From IMG/VR virus record IMGVR_UViG_3300030330_005139: a DNA stretch of 64,000 nucleotides; one strand, written 5' to 3'. Position numbers and translations under genes: made by a program. This stretch comes from a virus (Duplodnaviria > Caudoviricetes). Positions 1 to 9,357 of the stretch are shown piece by piece (position 1 is the stretch's first letter; every line of letters starts with the position of its first letter). The notes under the pieces were generated by a model. It worked only from the letters and a program-made list of their open reading frames with translations. It did not search any database and was not told where the DNA came from.

Positions 1-384
1 GAGGATTCCTCTGATAAGTATCTTGCTAAGAGACGTAAGGCAATTGCCAAGTCCATGGGTAAGAAGGAGGATGTGAAGGAGGCCAGAAATCCTGGTGAGA
101 CTCCTAGTTCGATGAAAGAAGGTATTGACTTCAAGGGTGCTAAGCGTATTGATGATGCCCGTAAAGCCAAGCGTGAGGCCCTCTACAAGAAGTCTCCTTC
201 TACCAAGCAAAAGGACCTGATGAAGGGTAAGTTCCGCCCTGGTGCTTCTGACGAGGAGCGCAAGTCTGGCTACCGCGATATCATGAAGGAAAAGGGCACC
301 CAACCTATCAAGGATGGTAAGCCTATGTTCAACAAAGAAGAACTGGAAGCCATTCAGGCAAAGGTTGATTCCTGGGAAGACTGA
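1..384 (+). CDS. 3' part of a Lys/Glu-rich probable internal head protein (5'-truncated by the window)
   Basis: Frame +1 is open from base 1 (EDSSDKYLAKRRKAIAKSMGKK...). Charged low-complexity composition with VKE/MKE motifs resembling gp21 cleavage sites. Confidence 0.6.
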   Translation, partial: EDSSDKYLAKRRKAIAKSMGKKEDVKEARNPGETPSSMKEGIDFKGAKRIDDARKAKREALYKKSPSTKQKDLMKGKFRPGASDEERKSGYRDIMKEKGTQPIKDGKPMFNKEELEAIQAKVDSWED

Positions 385-402
385 TAAACTGGAGGGTCGG
401 TA

Positions 403-2439
403 ATGAGAGACGTTTTTAAGTATTTCAAATACGCAAGATCCGTCCAACAAGATGTTCTCGCTGAGAGCACAACTTCTGAAAGAGCCCATGAACTCGGTTA
501 TGAATATCGGTCTCGTGGTGTCTGGTTAGACCCACGGACCGGTAAGAGGTATCGTGCTCAGGGAACTCAGTTCAGGGAAATTGATGTTGCACAACCAGTA
601 GAAAGAGAACCAGCAGCCGAAGAAGAACCAACATCTGAGAGAGAACCCGAACAACAGGGACAAGAAGAGGGTGGTGAGGAACAAGTTTCATCCAATCCTC
701 AGGTCAACAGAGTTGTTCCTGGTGGACCCACCGACTCTGTCGTTGCTTCTGGAGATCAATCAAGAGTTGAAAAACAACTCTCAAGAGGAAGAGAACAAGT
801 ACAAAGTGCAGAGAGAAAGGCACAGATCAAAGCTCAGGCAGCTGCTTTGATTGCTGCAGACAGGGCTAAGAGACAGGCTGAAGCTGATGCCGCTGCTGAA
901 GCAGAAGCACCAGAGGGTCTTGATGATCTTCTCAGTGACATCAGGGATGAGGAACCTGCGAAGAAACCAGAAGACTTCCCTACAATTGATCAGACTGTGG
1001 ATGAACTTGACTCAGAAGAGAAGAGTCAAGAAGAGATGGATGATGAGTTTGACACAGAGTTTGAGCAGTTCACTAAAGATAGAGAAGAGATGATGAGGGA
1101 TCTGACGGCACGTCAGAGAGCCATCATGGAGAAGAAGTTTGGAAGATTCACTGAGAGTCTGAAGAACATTCCTTCTGCATCTGATAAGAAATCATTCCTC
1201 CAGTCGATGGCTCATGCCAAGACATATGAGGGAAGAGTGAACGCAGGTGCTGGTAAGAATAATCTTGGTTATGCTGACATCCAGAATCTTATGGCAAACC
1301 GTGACAGACTCATAAAAGGTTATGGTGATGGGTCACCACAACAAATCAAGAAGTTTGTTCAATCTGTCAGATCAAATAAAGTCTCTGATGAGTTTGTTGA
1401 TGCTTCATTTGACGTTCTTCCAGAAGCATTTAAGAAGTCTCTGACTGGTAAAGGTCAGGTTACTAACGATAAATATGTTTCGGATGACAAGGCACATAAG
1501 GACATCCACTATCTTGGTAAGAACGAAGATGGTAGTGTGAAGAGAGGAGCAGCAAGTAATAAAGACAGAGCTAAGTTGATGTGGAGGATCTACCTAGAAC
1601 AGGGTGGTCGTGACGCATATACAGGTCTCCCATTGGACCTACAAGCCATGGACCTTGAACACGTTCGTGGTTTTAATAACAAAGATGGTGGCGCGCCTGG
1701 TAAAAAAGAGTGGGAACAGAGAGAAAATGATGACAACATGACTCTCATCAACTCAAACATCAACCAGAAGAAGGTTGATCTTTCGATGGAAGATTTCTTT
1801 AAGAGAGAAGTTGATCCTAATAAGAATAAGTCTGAAGAGGACTTTGGTGGAATTGAGAAACTGTTTGAGAAACAGAATCAAATTGGAACAGTTGGTGAAC
1901 AACTGGCAAAAACCCTTTTGGGTGAGGGCGGTAAGGGACTTGGTAACGAAGTGACCAGAGAACTCTTGACAGAACACTTCGGTGCTGATGACACCAGATA
2001 CACTGAACTCAGAGACGAGTTTAGAAAGGTCGCAACTGAAGACAAAGATAAGAAGAAAGCTGCAGGAATGAAATCCAAATTGGGTAAGACACTCCTTAAA
2101 GCAACTGGATTGTCTCGTGGTATCACTGACCCATCAGGCAGAAGAACAGTGGCACTCCAGGAGAATGTTTATCGTGGGTTCCTTCAGTCAATGGCTGGAG
2201 CAAAACCAGCAGACCGTCAGAGATATATGGATGGTTGGGCTGAAGCCATCAAGGCTGGTAACGAAGAAAGAAGTCCAAAGGCAGTCAATCGTAAGTTGGT
2301 TGAACTGGGTCTGATTGATGAGGATATCTTGAACGATAAGAAGGCTGGACGAGTGTTCAAGGAGGAACTGGAAGAGTTGACAAAACCATCAGGACGCGAT
2401 ATAATTGAAAGACTAAAGAGGTCCCTTAGAGACTTTTGA
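403..2439 (+). CDS. Large HNH endonuclease (Cas9-type HNH motif) with internal-head-protein-like N-terminus
   Basis: IYLEQGGRDAYTGLPLD..MDLEHV..ENDDNMTLINSNINQKK matches the Cas9/HNH pattern QxGRDxYxG..D(H)..N..L...N..K. Acidic linker and VLAE site near the N-terminus. Confidence 0.75.
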   Translation: MRDVFKYFKYARSVQQDVLAESTTSERAHELGYEYRSRGVWLDPRTGKRYRAQGTQFREIDVAQPVEREPAAEEEPTSEREPEQQGQEEGGEEQVSSNPQVNRVVPGGPTDSVVASGDQSRVEKQLSRGREQVQSAERKAQIKAQAAALIAADRAKRQAEADAAAEAEAPEGLDDLLSDIRDEEPAKKPEDFPTIDQTVDELDSEEKSQEEMDDEFDTEFEQFTKDREEMMRDLTARQRAIMEKKFGRFTESLKNIPSASDKKSFLQSMAHAKTYEGRVNAGAGKNNLGYADIQNLMANRDRLIKGYGDGSPQQIKKFVQSVRSNKVSDEFVDASFDVLPEAFKKSLTGKGQVTNDKYVSDDKAHKDIHYLGKNEDGSVKRGAASNKDRAKLMWRIYLEQGGRDAYTGLPLDLQAMDLEHVRGFNNKDGGAPGKKEWEQRENDDNMTLINSNINQKKVDLSMEDFFKREVDPNKNKSEEDFGGIEKLFEKQNQIGTVGEQLAKTLLGEGGKGLGNEVTRELLTEHFGADDTRYTELRDEFRKVATEDKDKKKAAGMKSKLGKTLLKATGLSRGITDPSGRRTVALQENVYRGFLQSMAGAKPADRQRYMDGWAEAIKAGNEERSPKAVNRKLVELGLIDEDILNDKKAGRVFKEELEELTKPSGRDIIERLKRSLRDF

Positions 2440-2445
2440 TTTTTG

Positions 2446-3318
2446 ATGTCCAAACTTTCTGAATCAATTGATGATGCTTACTTCACTTGTCCAGAGGATG
2501 TTGAGTTTGTTCATGACAAGCTGAGGGAGTCTGATTGGTTGGGTGGAAGCATTCTGGAACCTTGTGCTGGTGCTGGTCGTCTGGTAAAGGGACTTGAGAA
2601 CGTTCAGATGTGGGACCTCAATCAATATGATGTCCCTCTCGATCGTGTGGGTAATTTTCTTGACCAACCCGCAAATGAGAGATTTGATCTTGTTCTAACT
2701 AATCCTCCCTTTGGGTGGTTGGGTCATCTTGCCGGAGACATCTTCAACAAGGCAACTCAGTTCGCTGATCGGATTGCAATCATTCTTCCTCAATGTTATA
2801 GGAAGGTTCAGAGAATTGATAAGATCAATGAGATGTGGCACCCTGTTGGTGACTTCGATCTTCCAAATCAAGAGTACATTCTCCCTGATGGTCAACGTAA
2901 GTTTGTAAGAACTTGCTTCCAGATGTGGGAGAAACGTGATTACAAACGCAAAAAGTTTGGAAACACATCTTACCATGAGTTCTTCCGTCAAGTTCCCAAA
3001 GATCAGGCAGAATATTATCTCAGAACACAAGGATCCTCAGCTGGAAGAATTCTTGAAGGTCTCAAGTATCCTGATGGTCGTGAGTACAACTCCAACTCAG
3101 GTCGATGGATGGCTGGGGGTAAGGAAACCATCCTTAAATATGATTGGACCAAGGTTGCAAGATTTGCATCTGGTGCCCAATCCATTGGTCTCCATGACAT
3201 TGCTTGGGGGCTTCGATCTCCTAACACTGAAGAATACCTAATCCATGGTATAATGTATGATCTAATTAACGGTGTTTACGATCAACAACCTGAAAACAAC
3301 CTCATGAAATACTTCTGA
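2446..3318 (+). CDS. DNA adenine N6-methyltransferase (gamma-type motif order)
   Basis: Motif X YFT, SAM motif ILEPCAGAG, then catalytic NPPF. ATG at 2446. Confidence 0.85.
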   Translation: MSKLSESIDDAYFTCPEDVEFVHDKLRESDWLGGSILEPCAGAGRLVKGLENVQMWDLNQYDVPLDRVGNFLDQPANERFDLVLTNPPFGWLGHLAGDIFNKATQFADRIAIILPQCYRKVQRIDKINEMWHPVGDFDLPNQEYILPDGQRKFVRTCFQMWEKRDYKRKKFGNTSYHEFFRQVPKDQAEYYLRTQGSSAGRILEGLKYPDGREYNSNSGRWMAGGKETILKYDWTKVARFASGAQSIGLHDIAWGLRSPNTEEYLIHGIMYDLINGVYDQQPENNLMKYF

Positions 3319-3320
3319 TA

Positions 3321-4172
3321 ATGACACTCGAAATCAACAAAACCCATTTGATGTCTAACATTGATGGATGTGAACAGATGGACCCAGAGTCTGTCAATCT
3401 GGTCGTCACTTCTCCACCTTATGATAACCTGAGAGAGTACAATGACTCCTCCACCTGGAACTTTGATGTGTTCAAGCAGGTTGCTGATGGACTCATTCGT
3501 GTTCTGAAACCAGGTGGTGTCATTGCATGGAATGTTGCTGATGCCATCGTTGAACTTCACAAGAAGCAAGGAACTTCAAGGACTGGTTCTTCGTTTCGTC
3601 AGTGTCTTTACTTCCAAGAACAGGGACTGAACTTCCATGACCTGATCATTTACGAGAAACCAGCTGCTCGTTTCTCTGCTTCTGCCACTGGTCTTCGTTA
3701 CTCTGATGTGTTTGAGTATGTCTTCATCATGACGAAGGGGAAACCAGACCACATGCAAGTGATTGCGGATAAGAAGAACAAAGGGTTTGGAACAACCTTC
3801 ACCAAAGATGGTGGAAGAAACAAGGATGGAACCCGTAATCGTGATGCTGAGAAGACACAGATTGCTGTGAAGGAGTTTGGTGTTCGTCACAACATCTGGA
3901 GGATCAACAACTCATGTGGAGCTCACGGGATGCCTAAGGAGGCTTACGAACACCCAGCTCTGATGCCACAGGAACTGGCAGATGACCTGATCCGTTCTTA
4001 CTCTCGTGAAGGTGACCTGGTGTTGGATCCGTTCATGGGTTCCGGAACAACAGCAAGAATGGCTTTCAAGAACAATCGTGATTACATTGGGTTTGAGATT
4101 GACCCCACTTACCATGAGTTGTGTGTCAATCTCAACGCTTCGGAATGTAACTCCGTGTTTGACAAACTCTAA
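3321..4172 (+). CDS. DNA N4-cytosine/N6-adenine methyltransferase (beta class)
   Basis: N-terminal VTSPPY, HPA..P and C-terminal VLDPFMGSGTT. Confidence 0.9.
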   Translation: MTLEINKTHLMSNIDGCEQMDPESVNLVVTSPPYDNLREYNDSSTWNFDVFKQVADGLIRVLKPGGVIAWNVADAIVELHKKQGTSRTGSSFRQCLYFQEQGLNFHDLIIYEKPAARFSASATGLRYSDVFEYVFIMTKGKPDHMQVIADKKNKGFGTTFTKDGGRNKDGTRNRDAEKTQIAVKEFGVRHNIWRINNSCGAHGMPKEAYEHPALMPQELADDLIRSYSREGDLVLDPFMGSGTTARMAFKNNRDYIGFEIDPTYHELCVNLNASECNSVFDKL

Positions 4173-4187
4173 AACATCTGTTAGTAT
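4159..4187 (+). promoter_or_regulatory. sigma70-type early promoter for the sigma factor gene
   Basis: TTGACA (4159-4164), 17 bp spacer, TGn-TAGTAT (4182-4187). Confidence 0.7.
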
Positions 4188-4209
4188 AAAACTCCATTAC
4201 ACATCACCC

Positions 4210-4911
4210 ATGCAATTCGCCAAACAAATTGACCACGTCGAAGAGATCGAACTTTGTAAGAAGGCACAACAAGGAGGCGATGATGGCGAGAGGGCTAAGA
4301 GTATAGTGGTCAATGCCAATCTTGGTTTGGTTGCTCACATTGCAAAGAAGAACTATTACAAGAACGATCAATATTCCTTTGACGATCTCTTTCAGGAGGG
4401 AGTATTTGGTCTTGTTCGAGCAATCGAAAAGTTCGATCCAACAGAGGGTTGTCGGTTCTCAACTTATTCTTATTACTGGATCTATGCTTTTATCAGCAGG
4501 TTCAAGAATAACAACAGGGGAAGCATCCGTCTTCCTCTTCATGTCACTGACAAGATGAGGACTCTTGAGAAGAAGGACAAGGTTGCCTTTGAGGAATACA
4601 AGTCCAAGATTCCTGTGGCAGTCTCTCTGAATAAGATGATTAGTGACTCCACTTCTATCTTGGACTTGGTTTCTGATGAAGATGAGACAAATATTCTTGA
4701 TCGAATTGACAATGAACTTCTGATGGAACAGATCAAAGAACTTCTTTCTGAGAAAGAGTTTGATGTTCTTTGTAATCGTTATGGTCTTGAGGGACGAGAA
4801 CAGAAGACTCATCGTGAATGTGCCAAGATTTATGGAGTCTCTCACACAGCAGTTTATCTGATTGAGAAGAAGGCTTTTGAGAAAATTAGGAAAACATTTG
4901 CCACTAAATAA
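4210..4911 (+). CDS. RNA polymerase sigma70-family factor (RpoD/RpoS-like, not gp55)
   Basis: Region 2 NLGLVAHIAKK..DDLFQEGVFGLVRAIEKFDP..RFSTYSYYWI, SIRLP, and region 4 HTH. Start placed at ATG 4210, downstream of the promoter. Confidence 0.9.
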   Translation: MQFAKQIDHVEEIELCKKAQQGGDDGERAKSIVVNANLGLVAHIAKKNYYKNDQYSFDDLFQEGVFGLVRAIEKFDPTEGCRFSTYSYYWIYAFISRFKNNNRGSIRLPLHVTDKMRTLEKKDKVAFEEYKSKIPVAVSLNKMISDSTSILDLVSDEDETNILDRIDNELLMEQIKELLSEKEFDVLCNRYGLEGREQKTHRECAKIYGVSHTAVYLIEKKAFEKIRKTFATK

Positions 4912-4938
4912 TAAAAACACTGAGTGTAAGTGTAGAAA

Positions 4939-6183
4939 GTGATGAAAAGTTTTCTGAATTTCTTCTCCGAAGCAAGGGTCACCCGTGCTGCTCAAGAAGC
5001 GAAGAGGAAGGGTCTGACTTATCAGGATGGTTATTGGGTAGACAGATCTGGTAAGAGGGTCGCAAGAACAGAGAATGGGGAGCTCAAGATTCTCTCAGCG
5101 AGAGAGGCTGCACAGGAGGAGGAACCCACCCAAGAGAGAAAACCAGAATCTGAAGGTGAGGTTCAACAGCAGCGTCCTGGTGGAGAGGTTGAGCAACCCA
5201 AAGAGAAGAGAAAGGGGAAAGATATGACCATTGTGTTTGGGAGATTTAACCCTCCCACAATTGGACACAAGTTGGTTCTTGATAAGGCTTCATCTCTCCC
5301 TGGAGACTATGTGGTTTATCCTTCGAGATCGAATGATCCTCAGAAGAATCCTCTTGAACCCGCTGAGAAGACGGAAATCATGAAGAAGATGTTCCCTCAG
5401 CATTCTGACTCCATTGTCAATGATGAAAGCATCAGAACAATCTTTGATGCTCTTAAAGTTGCAGATGAAGAGGGTTACACAAATGTAAATATCGTTGTTG
5501 GTTCTGACAGGATCTCCGAGTTTGATTCATTGGCTCAGAAGTATAACGGAGAGATGTATAACTTCGAAGAGATCAACACGATCTCTGCTGGTGAAAGAGA
5601 TGAGGAAGAGGCTGGTGTTGGTGGAATGTCAGCATCTAAGATGAGAAAGGCTGCAGCTGAAGATGACTTTGAGTCTTTCAGGCAAGGAACTCCAGAAGAG
5701 ATGGAGGACAAAGATGTTAGGTCTTTGATGAATCTTCTGAGAAAGAGAATGAATGTTACAGAAGGTTGGAACTTGTGGGAGATTGCTCCTAAGTTTGATT
5801 GGAAAAACCTTCGTGAGAATTATGTAACTGGTAAGATTTTTAATCTGGATCAGATTGTGGAGAGTCTGAAGACAGGTTTGATTGGAAAGGTAATCAGAAG
5901 AGGAACTAATTATCTGATCTGTGTGACAGAAGAGGATGTTATGTTCAAGTCTTGGATTCGTGATCTTAAAGAGTACACTGAAGTCAAGATGGATCGTAAG
6001 ATGAGAACAAAGGATAAGCCAAACACTCTTGAGGGAACTGGTGGTTACTTTAAGAACGCAGCTGCAATTACTCCTGGGTTTGAAAATGGTGATAATACTA
6101 ACCTTCAACCAGGTGGTAAGCCTTACAAAGGTTATCAGAAGCAAACAGTCAAGGAATTCATAAATAAGTTTAGGAAAAAGTAA
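4939..6183 (+). CDS. Cytidylyltransferase/NMNAT-like HIGH-superfamily nucleotidyltransferase, probably packaged
   Basis: FGRFNPPTIGH (HxGH), VVGSDR and MSASKMR motifs. N-terminal MKSFLNFFSE. Late promoter CTAAATA upstream. Confidence 0.85.
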   Translation: MMKSFLNFFSEARVTRAAQEAKRKGLTYQDGYWVDRSGKRVARTENGELKILSAREAAQEEEPTQERKPESEGEVQQQRPGGEVEQPKEKRKGKDMTIVFGRFNPPTIGHKLVLDKASSLPGDYVVYPSRSNDPQKNPLEPAEKTEIMKKMFPQHSDSIVNDESIRTIFDALKVADEEGYTNVNIVVGSDRISEFDSLAQKYNGEMYNFEEINTISAGERDEEEAGVGGMSASKMRKAAAEDDFESFRQGTPEEMEDKDVRSLMNLLRKRMNVTEGWNLWEIAPKFDWKNLRENYVTGKIFNLDQIVESLKTGLIGKVIRRGTNYLICVTEEDVMFKSWIRDLKEYTEVKMDRKMRTKDKPNTLEGTGGYFKNAAAITPGFENGDNTNLQPGGKPYKGYQKQTVKEFINKFRKK

Positions 6184-6198
6184 GATCTAAATTCAATC

Positions 6199-7485
6199 AT
6201 GAATAACCCTCTTAATGAGATTTCCAAAGTGTATCTTGAACAGGTACTTTCGGAAGAAAAGATTGTTGCTGAAAGTGTTTTTCAAGAACTCCTGGAAGAA
6301 GGATTTGAAGAGTCCGATATCAGAGAGGCCATTGATGGTGTCTTGACAGAGGTTTCTAGTAGTTATTATGATTCGGCTGTCAAAGCTTCTAAGAAGAAAT
6401 CAAACGAACTCAAGAGAAAGGAGTTCATGAGTAAGGTGAGAGGTCGTCTCGCTAATGCTCAAGTTGCTGCTTATAATAAAGGAAGAGAACTCAAACAGAA
6501 AGCTGGTGACACAATCAATAGAGCAAAACAGAGTGCAGCCGGTAAAGTTTTTCGGGCGAAGAAAGCTCCTGAGAAAGTGAAGAAGGGACTGAAGGGATTC
6601 ATCAAGAAGCAAGCAGAGAAGGTTGTTAATAGAATGTCGGAAGATTATTCTGACTGGAGAAGTGATCTGATTGAAGTCAGTGGTTACTCTTATGCCAACA
6701 CAACTGGTGCTGTTCCAACCAAAACCAAGAAGAGTGAGGAGTTAGATCAGGAAATTACAGTCAAGAATGTCAAGAATAAGGTTGTAATCAATCCAAACAT
6801 GAGAGAGGAGTTCGCCTCGATGGGTGCGGAAGTTCTCGAAGTTTCTGAGATCGATGAAAAGATTAACATGAGAACGGCAGATGTCGGGGATGTCGTCAAG
6901 GATTTTTATAAGTCTGATGCTCCTCAGTTCAAAGGTAAGTCAAAAGAGAAGAGACGCCAAATGGCGATCGCTGCTAAACTTGAAGCTGAAGATCAGAATG
7001 AGGAATTCACTCTTGAAGATGTGATTGAGTTTCTTGTCACTGAGGGATATGTTTGGGATCGTGCTGGTGCCGAGAAGATGCTTGAGGAAGCTTCTGAAAC
7101 GGAAATGGAACTGATTTTCGAAACATTCATCAACGAAGCCAAAACGGACAAGGAAGGTAACGACAAGTTTGATCGTTACAAGCGAATGGTTCGACACAAG
7201 CAGGATAAGTACGGAGTTTCTACTTTGAAGCAACGTCTGATGACTGGTGCTGATCACAACATTGATAATGAAAAGAAGGCAAAAGCCATGGGTGAAGCAC
7301 TGAGTGTAGATGATCAGATGAAAATCTCTCGTGAGGCAGCAAAGAAGAGAAATCCTAACCCTGACCACAAGGCAATTCGTGCCAAGATGATGCAGAAACC
7401 TCTTCCTAAGGACACAAGAACAGATGCTCAGAAGATGACTGACGCAACTGGTCCTCGCCCTGGTTCAAACTACAGAGGTGACTGA
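6199..7485 (+). CDS. Probable internal head (prohead-core-like) protein
   Basis: Many (L/I/V/F)xE motifs, highly charged, late promoter ATAAATA upstream. Confidence 0.6.
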   Translation: MNNPLNEISKVYLEQVLSEEKIVAESVFQELLEEGFEESDIREAIDGVLTEVSSSYYDSAVKASKKKSNELKRKEFMSKVRGRLANAQVAAYNKGRELKQKAGDTINRAKQSAAGKVFRAKKAPEKVKKGLKGFIKKQAEKVVNRMSEDYSDWRSDLIEVSGYSYANTTGAVPTKTKKSEELDQEITVKNVKNKVVINPNMREEFASMGAEVLEVSEIDEKINMRTADVGDVVKDFYKSDAPQFKGKSKEKRRQMAIAAKLEAEDQNEEFTLEDVIEFLVTEGYVWDRAGAEKMLEEASETEMELIFETFINEAKTDKEGNDKFDRYKRMVRHKQDKYGVSTLKQRLMTGADHNIDNEKKAKAMGEALSVDDQMKISREAAKKRNPNPDHKAIRAKMMQKPLPKDTRTDAQKMTDATGPRPGSNYRGD

Positions 7486-8165
7486 TGAAAAAATGCAAAC
7501 CTGGACAATACTATTGTTACACCGACAAGAAGTGTAAACCAATTCCTAGGGGATTCAAGGTAGTTGGTCGTGCTGGTTATCTTCGCAAAGAAAATGGTCA
7601 CTCTGTTGACGATGAACCAAAAAATGGTAACGGCAATGGTAATGGAAATGGTAACGGCAATGGAAATGGAAATGGTAACGGCAACGGAAATGGTAATGGA
7701 AGTGGGAACGGCAATGGAAATGGTGGAAATGGTAATGGTGGTGGTATGAGCGAGGAATCAAATCCTCGTATTCCTAGAAAGAAGGGACAACCTGCAAATT
7801 CTAAGAAACACTCTGATCTTTATACTGATGAGAATCCAAAAGGAACCATTCATGGTTTAGGGTTCAAAGATGTTGCGACTGCTAAATCGAGCGTTTCTAA
7901 GATTAAAAAGTCAAGTCGTTCTCATGCTCACAAAATCCAGGCAGCAGTTGCTATGGAACAAAGAGCAAGAGAGATGGGTAAGACTTCTGAAGCAGCTGTC
8001 TATAGAGCATTTATTAATGTGATGAAGAAAAAGACCAAGAAAATGAACGAGGGTTGGTCTGACAAATACAAAAAATCAATTGATTGTAACAATCCAAAGG
8101 GATTTTCTCAGAGGGCACATTGCCAAGGAAAGAAAAAGACCTTTAAAGAGTTTATGGGTGATTGA
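7485..8165 (+). CDS. Probable internal virion protein with (Gly-Asn)n linker
   Basis: Cys motif, NG repeat, HSDLYTDENPKGTI module, CNNPKGFSQRAHC module. Confidence 0.6.
   Translation: MKKCKPGQYYCYTDKKCKPIPRGFKVVGRAGYLRKENGHSVDDEPKNGNGNGNGNGNGNGNGNGNGNGNGNGSGNGNGNGGNGNGGGMSEESNPRIPRKKGQPANSKKHSDLYTDENPKGTIHGLGFKDVATAKSSVSKIKKSSRSHAHKIQAAVAMEQRAREMGKTSEAAVYRAFINVMKKKTKKMNEGWSDKYKKSIDCNNPKGFSQRAHCQGKKKTFKEFMGD
7623..7746 (+). repeat. Degenerate AAY-GGN hexamer repeat encoding poly(Asn-Gly)
   Basis: aatggtaacggcaatggtaatggaaatggt... read directly. Confidence 0.95.
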
Positions 8166-8194
8166 TAAATAACTAAAGATATTGGGTAACTATC

Positions 8195-8371
8195 ATGTGG
8201 GCACTTTTTCTTCCATTTGCACGCTCGGTCGTTCTTCACCTCGTTGATTCACCGAAAATCAAACTCTTGGTTGTAGAACTTCTCGAAGCACTGGTCGCAC
8301 GCACCGATAATAAACTCGATGACCTCGCTGTCGCTCAGGTACGCAAAGCCCTGATCGAAGAAGAGGCATGA
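8195..8371 (+). CDS. Small hypothetical protein (58 aa; not in ORF track)
   Basis: MWALFLPFARSVVLHLVDSPKIKLLVVELLEALVARTDNKLDDLAVAQVRKALIEEEA. Late promoter upstream, terminator downstream. Confidence 0.75.
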   Translation: MWALFLPFARSVVLHLVDSPKIKLLVVELLEALVARTDNKLDDLAVAQVRKALIEEEA

Positions 8372-8378
8372 TGATTGT

Positions 8379-8405
8379 GGGGACATCTTATGTGTCCTCA
8401 TTTTT
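8379..8405 (+). terminator. Intrinsic terminator
   Basis: GGGGACA/TGTCCTC stem plus T tract, overlapping the late promoter TATAAATA. Confidence 0.7.
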
Positions 8406-8447
8406 ATAAATATTCATTAGCACAGAAATTCTACTAAGGGCAAAGAC

Positions 8448-8957
8448 ATGGCACTTTGGGGCAATAACGACAATGTGACTTCCACCGGAACGGTCTCATT
8501 GAACTATGATACTGGTGTAGTTACTGGTTCCGGAACCACATTTGTAACCGATCTGACAGAGGGTCAGGTAATTCGTTTCGGTACAAGAGAAAACGTTTAT
8601 TTCGGTGATGCCGTAATTACTGGTATTACTAGTGCCACTCTTCTTACCATTGGTAGTACCGCTGGTCTGAGTGGAGCAGCAATCGCATCCACAGACTTCT
8701 CGGTGAGTGAACTTCCTAAGTCTTCGGTTTTGGATTCTACCTTCAGTGAAGTCAATGGTGATTTCGACAAGTACATGTACGGTGTCGCTGCTGAGGAAGT
8801 TTCTGATTCTGCTGGTGGTCAATATGAAACTGGCGCTGGTTGGGTTGGTGTTACCACTTACATGGACACCCACGGAAACCTCAGAGTGAAGAAGGAAGTT
8901 ATGGTTGCGATGTCTGGAATCACAACTGGAAATACTCCTCTCTATCCTCCTGCTTGA
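8448..8957 (+). CDS. Virion structural protein (Thr/Gly-rich, beta-strand)
   Basis: MALWGNND start, AGWVGVTTYMDTHGNLRVKKE C-terminus, late promoter. Confidence 0.65.
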   Translation: MALWGNNDNVTSTGTVSLNYDTGVVTGSGTTFVTDLTEGQVIRFGTRENVYFGDAVITGITSATLLTIGSTAGLSGAAIASTDFSVSELPKSSVLDSTFSEVNGDFDKYMYGVAAEEVSDSAGGQYETGAGWVGVTTYMDTHGNLRVKKEVMVAMSGITTGNTPLYPPA

Positions 8958-8964
8958 TATGTAA

Positions 8965-9357
8965 ATGTTTTTCACTGAATTGAATGAGGAGAACTTTCTC
9001 CTCTTTGCTATTAAAAATTATGAGAACCCTCAGGCAGTAACTAAAGAGGACTTCGAAAAGGATTTAAACCATTTCAAGTACATCAAGAGGTTACTGAAGA
9101 GATATAAAAACAATGGTGAGTTGAGATCTCACTTGTTGATTAATCACTTTATTGTTCTTTACAATATCTTTGGTGAGGCAACTACGCCAATGCTTTTTTA
9201 TAAACTTGAGAATAATCTCTGGCCTGTCATTAAGACATTCGTTGTCTTTCTTGATAGGCTTCCTGAATACCCTCACACATACATCCATGAAATTGAAATG
9301 GATGAACAATGTCTAAAAGAACTGGAGAGCATTACTGATGGAAAAGTCAAAGATTGA
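8965..9357 (+). CDS. Conserved T4-like hypothetical protein upstream of primase
   Basis: F.KDL.HFKYIKRLLKRY..LLINHFIVLYNIFG motif and synteny. Confidence 0.7.
   Translation: MFFTELNEENFLLFAIKNYENPQAVTKEDFEKDLNHFKYIKRLLKRYKNNGELRSHLLINHFIVLYNIFGEATTPMLFYKLENNLWPVIKTFVVFLDRLPEYPHTYIHEIEMDEQCLKELESITDGKVKD

Follow-up and report, generated by a model that had tools for sequence, protein, structure and literature searches.

The DNA analysed here is a 64,000-nucleotide stretch of a tailed-phage genome (Duplodnaviria; Caudoviricetes; IMG/VR record IMGVR_UViG_3300030330_005139), which we refer to as the window and which, by comparison with references, is the replication and nucleotide-metabolism region of a T4-like cyanomyovirus (Kyanoviridae). 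Near its start an open reading frame (ORF, 403-2439) encodes a 678-amino-acid (aa) protein with an HNH nuclease motif. It is followed after 3-6 nt by the gene for methyltransferase 1 (MT1) and, 2 nt beyond that, by the gene for methyltransferase 2 (MT2), and then by genes for a sigma70-like factor and a cytidylyltransferase (Table 1). A first-pass annotation, made from the letters alone, had read the nuclease and the two methyltransferases as a restriction-modification system delivered by the virion, and the close succession of the HNH gene with an NPPF and an SPPY methyltransferase gene on which it relied is indeed present. The subject of this report is the HNH protein, how it might be used by the phage, and whether the methyltransferases belong with it.

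Table 1. Positions of the HNH gene's parts and of the surrounding features in the window
Feature	Position	Strand	Remarks
3' part of Lys/Glu-rich gene, product like S-SCSM1 ORF92	1..384	+	stops 18 nt before HNH gene
N-terminal leader, residues 1-21, MRDVFKYFKYAR...VLAE/S	403..465	+	resembles T4 capsid-targeting sequence (CTS)
~35-aa module (A..A..GL...G.G.W.D..G...)	466..582	+	predicted small beta meander
Acidic low-complexity linker, residues 61-229	583..1089	+	by composition, isoelectric point (pI) 4.1
Conserved basic core, residues 230-678, pI 9.2	1090..2436	+	helical domain + HNH domain + C-terminal helical bundle
HNH (beta-beta-alpha-metal) nuclease motif, residues 380-465	1540..1797	+	E419-H420, N445, N454, K457
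Sigma70-type promoter TTGACA-17-TATAAT	2377..2405	+	within HNH gene 3' end, directed into methyltransferases
MT1 gene, TNPPFG	2443..3318	+	start 2443 (TTG) or 2446 (ATG)
MT2 gene, beta-class, TSPPYD	3321..4172	+	PF01555, 2.3e-41
Sigma70-like factor gene (regions 2 and 4)	4159..4911	+	PF04542 + PF04545; start codon uncertain
Promoter of sigma factor gene, sigma70-like	4159-4187	+	10/12 matches, with TG
Cytidylyltransferase / NMNAT-like enzyme gene	4939..6183	+	PF01467; same leader + module as HNH protein
Late-like motif CATAAATA	6159-6166	+	ahead of ORF 6199-7485
Gene for Lys/Glu-rich S-SCSM1 ORF92-like protein	6199-7485	+	blastp 45% over 145 aa, E 1.4e-19

The motif residues that had been singled out are all found in the translation: QGGRDAYTG at 400-408, DLEH at 417-420, N445, and LINSNINQKK at 448-457. 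They lie in the basic core of a protein that otherwise consists of a leader and module (residues 1-60, pI 9.8) and an acidic linker whose length and sequence vary among relatives. An exhaustive search with residues 230-678 yielded a family that forms 143 clusters when grouped at 50% identity. Across 57 diverse relatives, aligned down to about 20% identity, H420, N445 and N454 are invariant (57/57), position 419 is always acidic (E in 50, D in 7) and K457 is kept in 56. Because the catalytic residues are invariant or nearly so in this alignment, the HNH motif is beyond chance. Seven of the 57 relatives match PF13395 (HNH_4), with a best E of 9.2e-6, and a profile of the alignment matches the Cas9 HNH domain in the PDB at E of about 2e-3, pairing DLEH with DIDH of Cas9 and both Asn with Asn residues of Cas9. 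The 678-aa protein itself matches phrog_3561, a phage family of unknown function, over residues 73-561 (E 3.2e-19), and nothing in NCBIfam or PADLOC, including no PADLOC restriction-enzyme model.

The AlphaFold2 model of the core is of high confidence (predicted local distance difference test score, pLDDT, 92.8; predicted template-modelling score, pTM, 0.86), and the structure search that had been suggested for residues ~230-650 was run on it with Foldseek. The HNH sub-domain matches that of GeoCas9 (probability 0.89), VIA-align superposes model residues ~97-245 on the same domain (Z 5.1, root-mean-square deviation 3.4, 90 aligned residues), and the HNH domains of Nme1Cas9, SaCas9, AceCas9 and AnaCas9 are further fold matches of this segment by Foldseek or VIA-align. 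With the whole core as query, Foldseek against the PDB gave no match at E <= 1e-3, and only the HNH sub-domain rows are meaningful; the top VIA-align rows, generic helical bundles on residues 248-381, were discarded as evidence of relationship, and the helical domains that flank the HNH segment have no specific structural match. The only phmmer matches in the PDB, LptE and CpxP, fall on the low-complexity acidic linker and were set aside as compositional. The Cas9-like spacing claimed at the outset is borne out by conservation, profile and fold alike, and the core carries what both alignment and model indicate is a Cas9-type HNH nuclease domain with its predicted active site intact. A homing endonuclease was considered and rejected, given a large protein with a conserved syntenic position, 143 clusters at 50% identity and N-terminal tags.

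The same core occurs elsewhere, in uncultured lineages, behind at least four unrelated N-terminal modules (P0132-P0146, P0170-P0212, P0233-P0266 and P0217-P0256), with the patterns EW.WR..G.PD..N..HL, N.GPEKWLSRSL, C..PDGS.YG.ADG..CRKG and C.KG.SCG..CI; their variety suggests lineage-specific targeting or partner-binding heads. Another motif, IKYKD.DG...EM......K...HPA, occurs both in the HNH protein from an uncultured phage lineage (L063:5982-7931) and, in a different lineage, in a 323-aa protein (L082:9806-10777) encoded adjoining that locus's HNH gene, and may represent a further shared tag, distinct from the first. In S-B43 (MN018232, 73865-74359) only the last quarter of the HNH gene is left (residues 517-678, 76% identity), adjoining the cytidylyltransferase gene, and looks like a remnant of gene loss.

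The N-terminus of the HNH protein is shared with a second enzyme of the locus. The first ~60 residues of the nuclease and the cytidylyltransferase are alike (E 4e-7, comparison within the window): the amphipathic leaders, MKSFLNFFSE/AR in the transferase and MRDVFKYFKYAR...VLAE/S in the nuclease (slashes mark putative cleavage points), align with each other, and both are followed by a module of the pattern A..A..GL...G.G.W.D..G..VART..GEL. AlphaFold2 models this module, with moderate confidence, as a helix followed by a meander of four short strands (block-mean pLDDT 69-84; about 76-84 across most strands). Relatives from other lineages have a leader ending in F-[ILFV]-x-E/[AG] and then the same module, the hydrophobic-x-E at the leader end being kept. 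In T4, the CTS is MKTYQEFIAE and is cleaved once by the head protease (PMC8442874), and it can load foreign proteins, a nuclease included, among the packaged DNA (PMC3012670).

A profile of leader and module, run over whole genomes, found in S-B05 only the nuclease and the transferase, in S-SCSM1 only the NMNAT, and in S-CREM2 only the gp14 kinase (twice) and gp12; every match for which proteomic data exist is virion-associated. No other gene of the 64-kb window has the tag. The first-pass annotation had pointed to LxE motifs near both ends of the protein. VLAE (18-21) and ELEE (654-657) are both there, but [LIV]xE occurs 13 times in the 678 residues compared with 11.4 +/- 2.8 in shuffled sequences, which is no better than chance, and we would give weight only to the conserved position of the hydrophobic-x-E at the leader end. 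The gp14 kinase of S-CREM2 (OR473000, 10579-12846), a virion protein, carries the beta module twice, and the virion S-adenosylmethionine (SAM) hydrolase gp6 of the same phage (3837-5081) has a CTS-like start, MKDFDSFLEE, without the module. A metagenomic candidate for a new cargo with a tRNA-synthetase domain (P0353), in which the N-terminal half of a cytidylyltransferase (leader, module and HIGH motif) is joined to a host-like GlnRS C-terminal domain, was rejected as most likely an assembly chimera on a chimeric contig.

Several relatives of the HNH protein are reported or annotated as constituents of virions. In a structure search against viral models, whole-length matches include A0A3G1L3U7 of S-CBWM1, labelled 'virion structural protein' (E 3.9e-12), and H6WG06 of S-TIM5, labelled 'virion structural protein and packaging' (E 2.1e-9). 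At sequence level, the profile of the family finds S-CBWM1 gp174 (E 2.9e-40; annotated virion structural protein), S-TIM5 AEZ65730 (E 2.1e-24; annotated virion protein) and S-CREM2 gp12 (E 4.5e-18), all three of which keep the acid-His...Asn...Asn residues. For S-TIM5 and S-CBWM1 virion status is a record annotation, and for S-CREM2 gp12 it comes from published mass spectrometry, in which the protein was detected with 28 unique peptides and 27.4% coverage (PMC10665884). The gp174 gene immediately precedes the major capsid gene, in a block with the portal and head peptidase genes. S-CBWM1 (MG450654) has two paralogues of the family, at 66779-68341 and 132375-133961, both with the HNH residues; gp106 has the terminase and PhoH genes close by, whereas gp174 adjoins the major capsid gene.

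The flanking genes point the same way. The cytidylyltransferase is 48% identical to ORF91 (NMNAT) of S-SCSM1, which is named among 45 virion proteins detected by mass spectrometry (PMC9602691), and the product of the partial gene that precedes the HNH gene is 49% identical over 51 aa to ORF92 of that phage (blastp, E 5.5e-6). Both ORF91 and ORF92 are annotated as virion proteins in the GenBank record, and the statement that the HNH gene sits among genes of internal-head type holds by this homology. No HNH homologue was found in the S-SCSM1 genome.

Timing was assessed by promoter motifs in 80 related IMG/VR loci, the neighbours in which were mapped against a panel of reference proteins. The late motif TATAAATA lies ahead of the gene directly preceding the HNH gene at 14 of 22 loci, compared with 36 of 320 background genes, and in a contig 98% identical to the window (L011) CATAAATA lies 34 nt upstream of the start of the full 335-aa upstream gene. 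Motifs of this kind suggest that the HNH gene is of the late class and the methyltransferases of the early class.

We consider it probable, at roughly 60%, that ORF 403-2439 belongs to a family of HNH nucleases carried in cyanomyovirus heads and ejected into the host, and that the methyltransferases beside it are orphan genes of a variable slot. The HNH gene would be transcribed late, together with the internal-protein-like gene upstream, and the CTS-like leader and beta module, which the nuclease shares with the transferase, would bring the protein into the prohead. There a gp21-type prohead protease could remove the leader after the hydrophobic-x-E site, and the protein would be kept in the head in an inactive or restrained state. 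On infection the nuclease would enter the host with the DNA and may cut or nick the DNA of the host or of competitors. It would belong to a first-strike cargo set that may comprise the nuclease and NMNAT and, in relatives, also a kinase and a SAM hydrolase.

A number of observations weigh against this proposal. The window's 678-aa protein has no Pfam match at E <= 1. Its leader has Y rather than E at position 10 and reaches its first hydrophobic-x-E at residues 19-21, and thus appears to depart from the T4-like pattern, with the putative cleavage site moved to E21. Support for virion delivery is indirect, the virion association being taken from the literature and record annotations on relatives; abundant non-structural proteins may co-purify with virions, as the authors of the proteomic study caution (PMC10665884), and the S-SCSM1 record lists even a translational repressor as a virion protein. 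In most genomes the HNH gene is found among replication and nucleotide-metabolism genes, and in uncultured lineages its flanks are a DNA-polymerase fragment on one side and the genes for SSB and UvsX on the other. How the phage's own DNA would escape a packaged nuclease is also unexplained. Thus, of the packaging proposed in the first-pass annotation, loading into the head is plausible on the strength of three virion-reported or virion-annotated relatives, a CTS-like leader and late-gene linkage, while leader cleavage and ejection are only inferred.

The main alternative, which we regard as unlikely although it stands well ahead of the others, is that the protein is not packaged, and is instead an intracellular nuclease of replication, recombination or repair, or one that degrades host DNA, and binds DNA tightly enough to co-purify with virions. 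The basic core would suit such binding, the proteomics papers themselves caution about carry-over, and the company that the gene keeps is of this kind: gp41, MazG, primase and NrdAB in T4-like cyanophages, gp55 and gp47/46 in S-CRM01, and the DNA-polymerase fragment, SSB and UvsX of the uncultured lineages. Against it, virion reports or annotations come from three unrelated cyanomyovirus lineages (S-CREM2, S-TIM5 and S-CBWM1), the 28 peptides of S-CREM2 gp12 are on a par with those of baseplate proteins, and the S-CBWM1 gene belongs to a head-gene block, directly before the major capsid gene. A CTS-like leader common to other virion-associated enzymes and the enrichment of a late promoter motif at the preceding gene also weigh against it.

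Whether the methyltransferases are partners of the nuclease can be judged from the genes that occupy their place in other phages. As regards METHYLTRANSFERASES and slot, the order is constant in T4-like cyanophages: ORF92-like gene, HNH gene, variable slot, cytidylyltransferase gene, ORF92-like gene. Among 36 T4-like loci, window included, in which both sides of the slot are visible, the slot is empty in 17, holds a sigma70-like factor in 10 (the commonest single occupant), a Dam-type methyltransferase in 6 and MT2 with the sigma factor in 1, and contains MT1, MT2 and the sigma factor in 2, namely the window and the 98%-identical L011. Downstream, the cytidylyltransferase gene is the invariable companion of the HNH gene, present in 36/36 T4-like loci (window included) whose downstream flank reaches one. 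Nucleases more than 80% identical to each other pair with different methyltransferase classes or with none, and in S-CRM01 and the S-B05 group no methyltransferase gene adjoins the HNH homologue.

The slot genes also have promoters of their own. The one within the HNH gene's 3' end matches the sigma70 consensus at 12/12 positions, and a promoter almost identical to it stands before MT2 in L012 and before the sigma gene in both L015 and L017; promoters of this sort accompany MT1 (2/2), Dam (7/7) and sigma genes (10/13), compared with 39 of 320 background genes. A near-identical promoter, TTGACAAAA..CAGGACG.GATA.AAT, recurs inside the HNH gene's 3' end with MT1, MT2 or the sigma factor as the first gene after it, which looks like promoter-led cassette shuffling at a single hotspot.

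Of the two enzymes themselves, MT1 matches phrog_5172 (4.7e-29), also phrog_799, and the PADLOC model MTase_II (1.3e-16). Its phage relatives are almost all remote, and among the matches listed they are mostly from coliphages, the best of those listed being a coliphage 'putative DNA N6-adenine methyltransferase' at 27% identity; two Synechococcus records are among the hits beyond those listed. The NPPF motif and the annotation of these distant homologues suggest N6-adenine methylation. For MT2 the best PADLOC model is an orphan methyltransferase (E 2.2e-69) and the best PDB matches are N4-cytosine methyltransferases, and it is predicted to methylate N4-cytosine or N6-adenine. Homologues of 54-55% identity occur in Syn9, Syn10, P-TIM40, S-MbCM6, S-H35 and S-RIM4, in none of which a homologue of the HNH nuclease was found. 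Because the content of the slot varies, the promoters are separate and MT2 is of orphan type, the methyltransferases are not cognate to the nuclease; on this comparative evidence they are independent, putatively early, orphan additions to a hypervariable slot, which probably protect the phage DNA from host restriction.

HNH-type restriction enzymes are known, and chloroviruses package restriction enzymes in their virions. The first-pass annotation proposed a similar arrangement for the window, in which a packaged HNH enzyme would cut unmethylated DNA of the host or of competitors at specific sites that both methyltransferases protect on the phage genome. In the window and L011 the three genes follow directly on one another, early methyltransferases with a late nuclease would be fitting timing, and a methyltransferase is near the homologue elsewhere: Dam in 6 loci, neighbours in ACG-2014f and, divergent, in S-TIM5, and gp8 in S-CREM2, together with the EcoRI-like gp11. 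The proposed co-occurrence of the nuclease with both methyltransferases, however, extends to one lineage and 2 of the 36 loci, the slot being usually empty or filled by other genes, such as the sigma factor alone, and differing beside closely similar nucleases; S-CRM01 and the S-B05 group do without an adjoining methyltransferase altogether. MT2 fits an orphan model and occurs in phages that lack an HNH homologue, no PADLOC restriction-enzyme model is matched by the nuclease, and the methyltransferases form a separate transcription unit with its own sigma70 promoter. The three genes therefore do not stand as a unit; a restriction-modification system is improbable here, and as a weakly supported possibility it applies to this lineage only.

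Equally doubtful, in our view, is a broader proposal that joins the two ideas, in which leader and module would be a portable tag for changeable head cargo (HNH nuclease, NMNAT-like enzyme, kinase), the injected nuclease would spare phage-methylated DNA, and slot methyltransferases and nuclease would together make up a virion-delivered analogue of restriction-modification in lineages like this one. The gene just before a phage's major capsid gene is commonly one for a scaffold or core protein. That the HNH protein is such a structural or DNA-condensing internal head protein, with an HNH fold that binds DNA without cutting it, would suit its basic core, the disordered acidic linker before that core, the position of the S-CBWM1 gp174 gene and the danger that an active packaged nuclease would pose to the genome, but a non-catalytic role is very unlikely because the acid-His, Asn, Asn and Lys residues are invariant or nearly so across relatives of about 20% identity, all virion-detected ones included.

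Beyond the second ORF92-like gene, the window encodes at 7485-8165 a basic 226-aa ORF (pI 9.95), the N-terminus of which is rich in Cys and which also contains a long (Gly-Asn)n run coded by 12-nt tandem repeats at 7599-7746.

If the HNH protein is indeed packaged and ejected, abundant marine cyanophages would deliver DNA-cutting and NAD-pathway enzymes at the moment of infection, before phage gene expression, and the idea of T4 internal proteins would extend to large enzyme cargo. Proteins could then also be loaded into cyanophage heads by means of a defined tag that can be transferred. Members of the family have turned up in virion proteomes, mislabelled or without a name, and the family is unstudied. 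More generally, where a nuclease gene adjoins methyltransferase genes in a hypervariable region of a phage genome, co-inheritance should be checked before the pair is called restriction-modification.

The closest described protein is S-CREM2 gp12 (WNL50931), published as a virion-associated 'CRISPR-Cas9 nuclease' (PMC10665884). It belongs to the same profile family as the window protein, and likewise has D-H...N...N, a beta module close to its start and an extended N-terminal part that is disordered. It differs in that it has 869 aa, is only 33% identical over 79 aa, begins with another leader (MTSRWSNWS...FMAE) and is encoded beside a virion kinase gene and an EcoRI-like gene, not an NMNAT gene. 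The closest domain is the HNH domain of Cas9 itself (PF13395, HNH_4), which has the beta-beta-alpha-metal fold in common with the window protein, as well as Q-x-G-x-D-x-Y-T-G, D-x-[DE]-H, N and N-x-x-K and the lack of zinc-binding cysteines. Unlike Cas9, the window protein has no RuvC, REC or PAM-interacting domains, a 25-residue insert separates two strands of its HNH domain, and the domain forms part of a helical, N-terminally tagged protein specific to phages. Pfam, NCBIfam and PADLOC reveal no RuvC or other Cas domain in the 678 residues, the rest of the fold being a helical bundle, and there is no direct-repeat array in window positions 1-9000. Because it has neither a RuvC domain nor a repeat array the window protein is not a Cas9, and neither is S-CREM2 gp12, the published label of which is misleading and is corrected here.

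Type II restriction-modification systems with an HNH nuclease resemble the window in the adjacency of nuclease and methyltransferase, in this lineage only, and the packaged restriction enzymes of chloroviruses resemble our proposal in that a nuclease inside the virion would be used against the DNA of the host. Unlike in Type II systems, the linkage seen in the window does not hold across loci, the methyltransferases are orphan enzymes with a promoter of their own, and no specificity domain was recognised. The closest mechanism is that of the T4 internal proteins (IPI-III) and Alt, which are loaded by the CTS MKTYQEFIAE and trimmed by gp21. The window protein would be like these in having a short amphipathic leader with a terminal hydrophobic-x-E, a pattern that is plainest in the cytidylyltransferase (MKSFLNFFSE/A), and in its predicted late expression and putative delivery with the DNA as non-structural cargo; in T4, too, cargo proteins of various kinds share a conserved tag (PMC3012670, PMC8442874). 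It is unlike the internal proteins, which are small and basic, in being a large enzyme with an additional ~35-aa beta module and an acidic linker, and in that its leader cleavage and ejection are putative. What appears to be new here is a variation on the internal-protein theme, in which a putatively packaged HNH enzyme carries an extended cargo tag that it shares with other enzymes.

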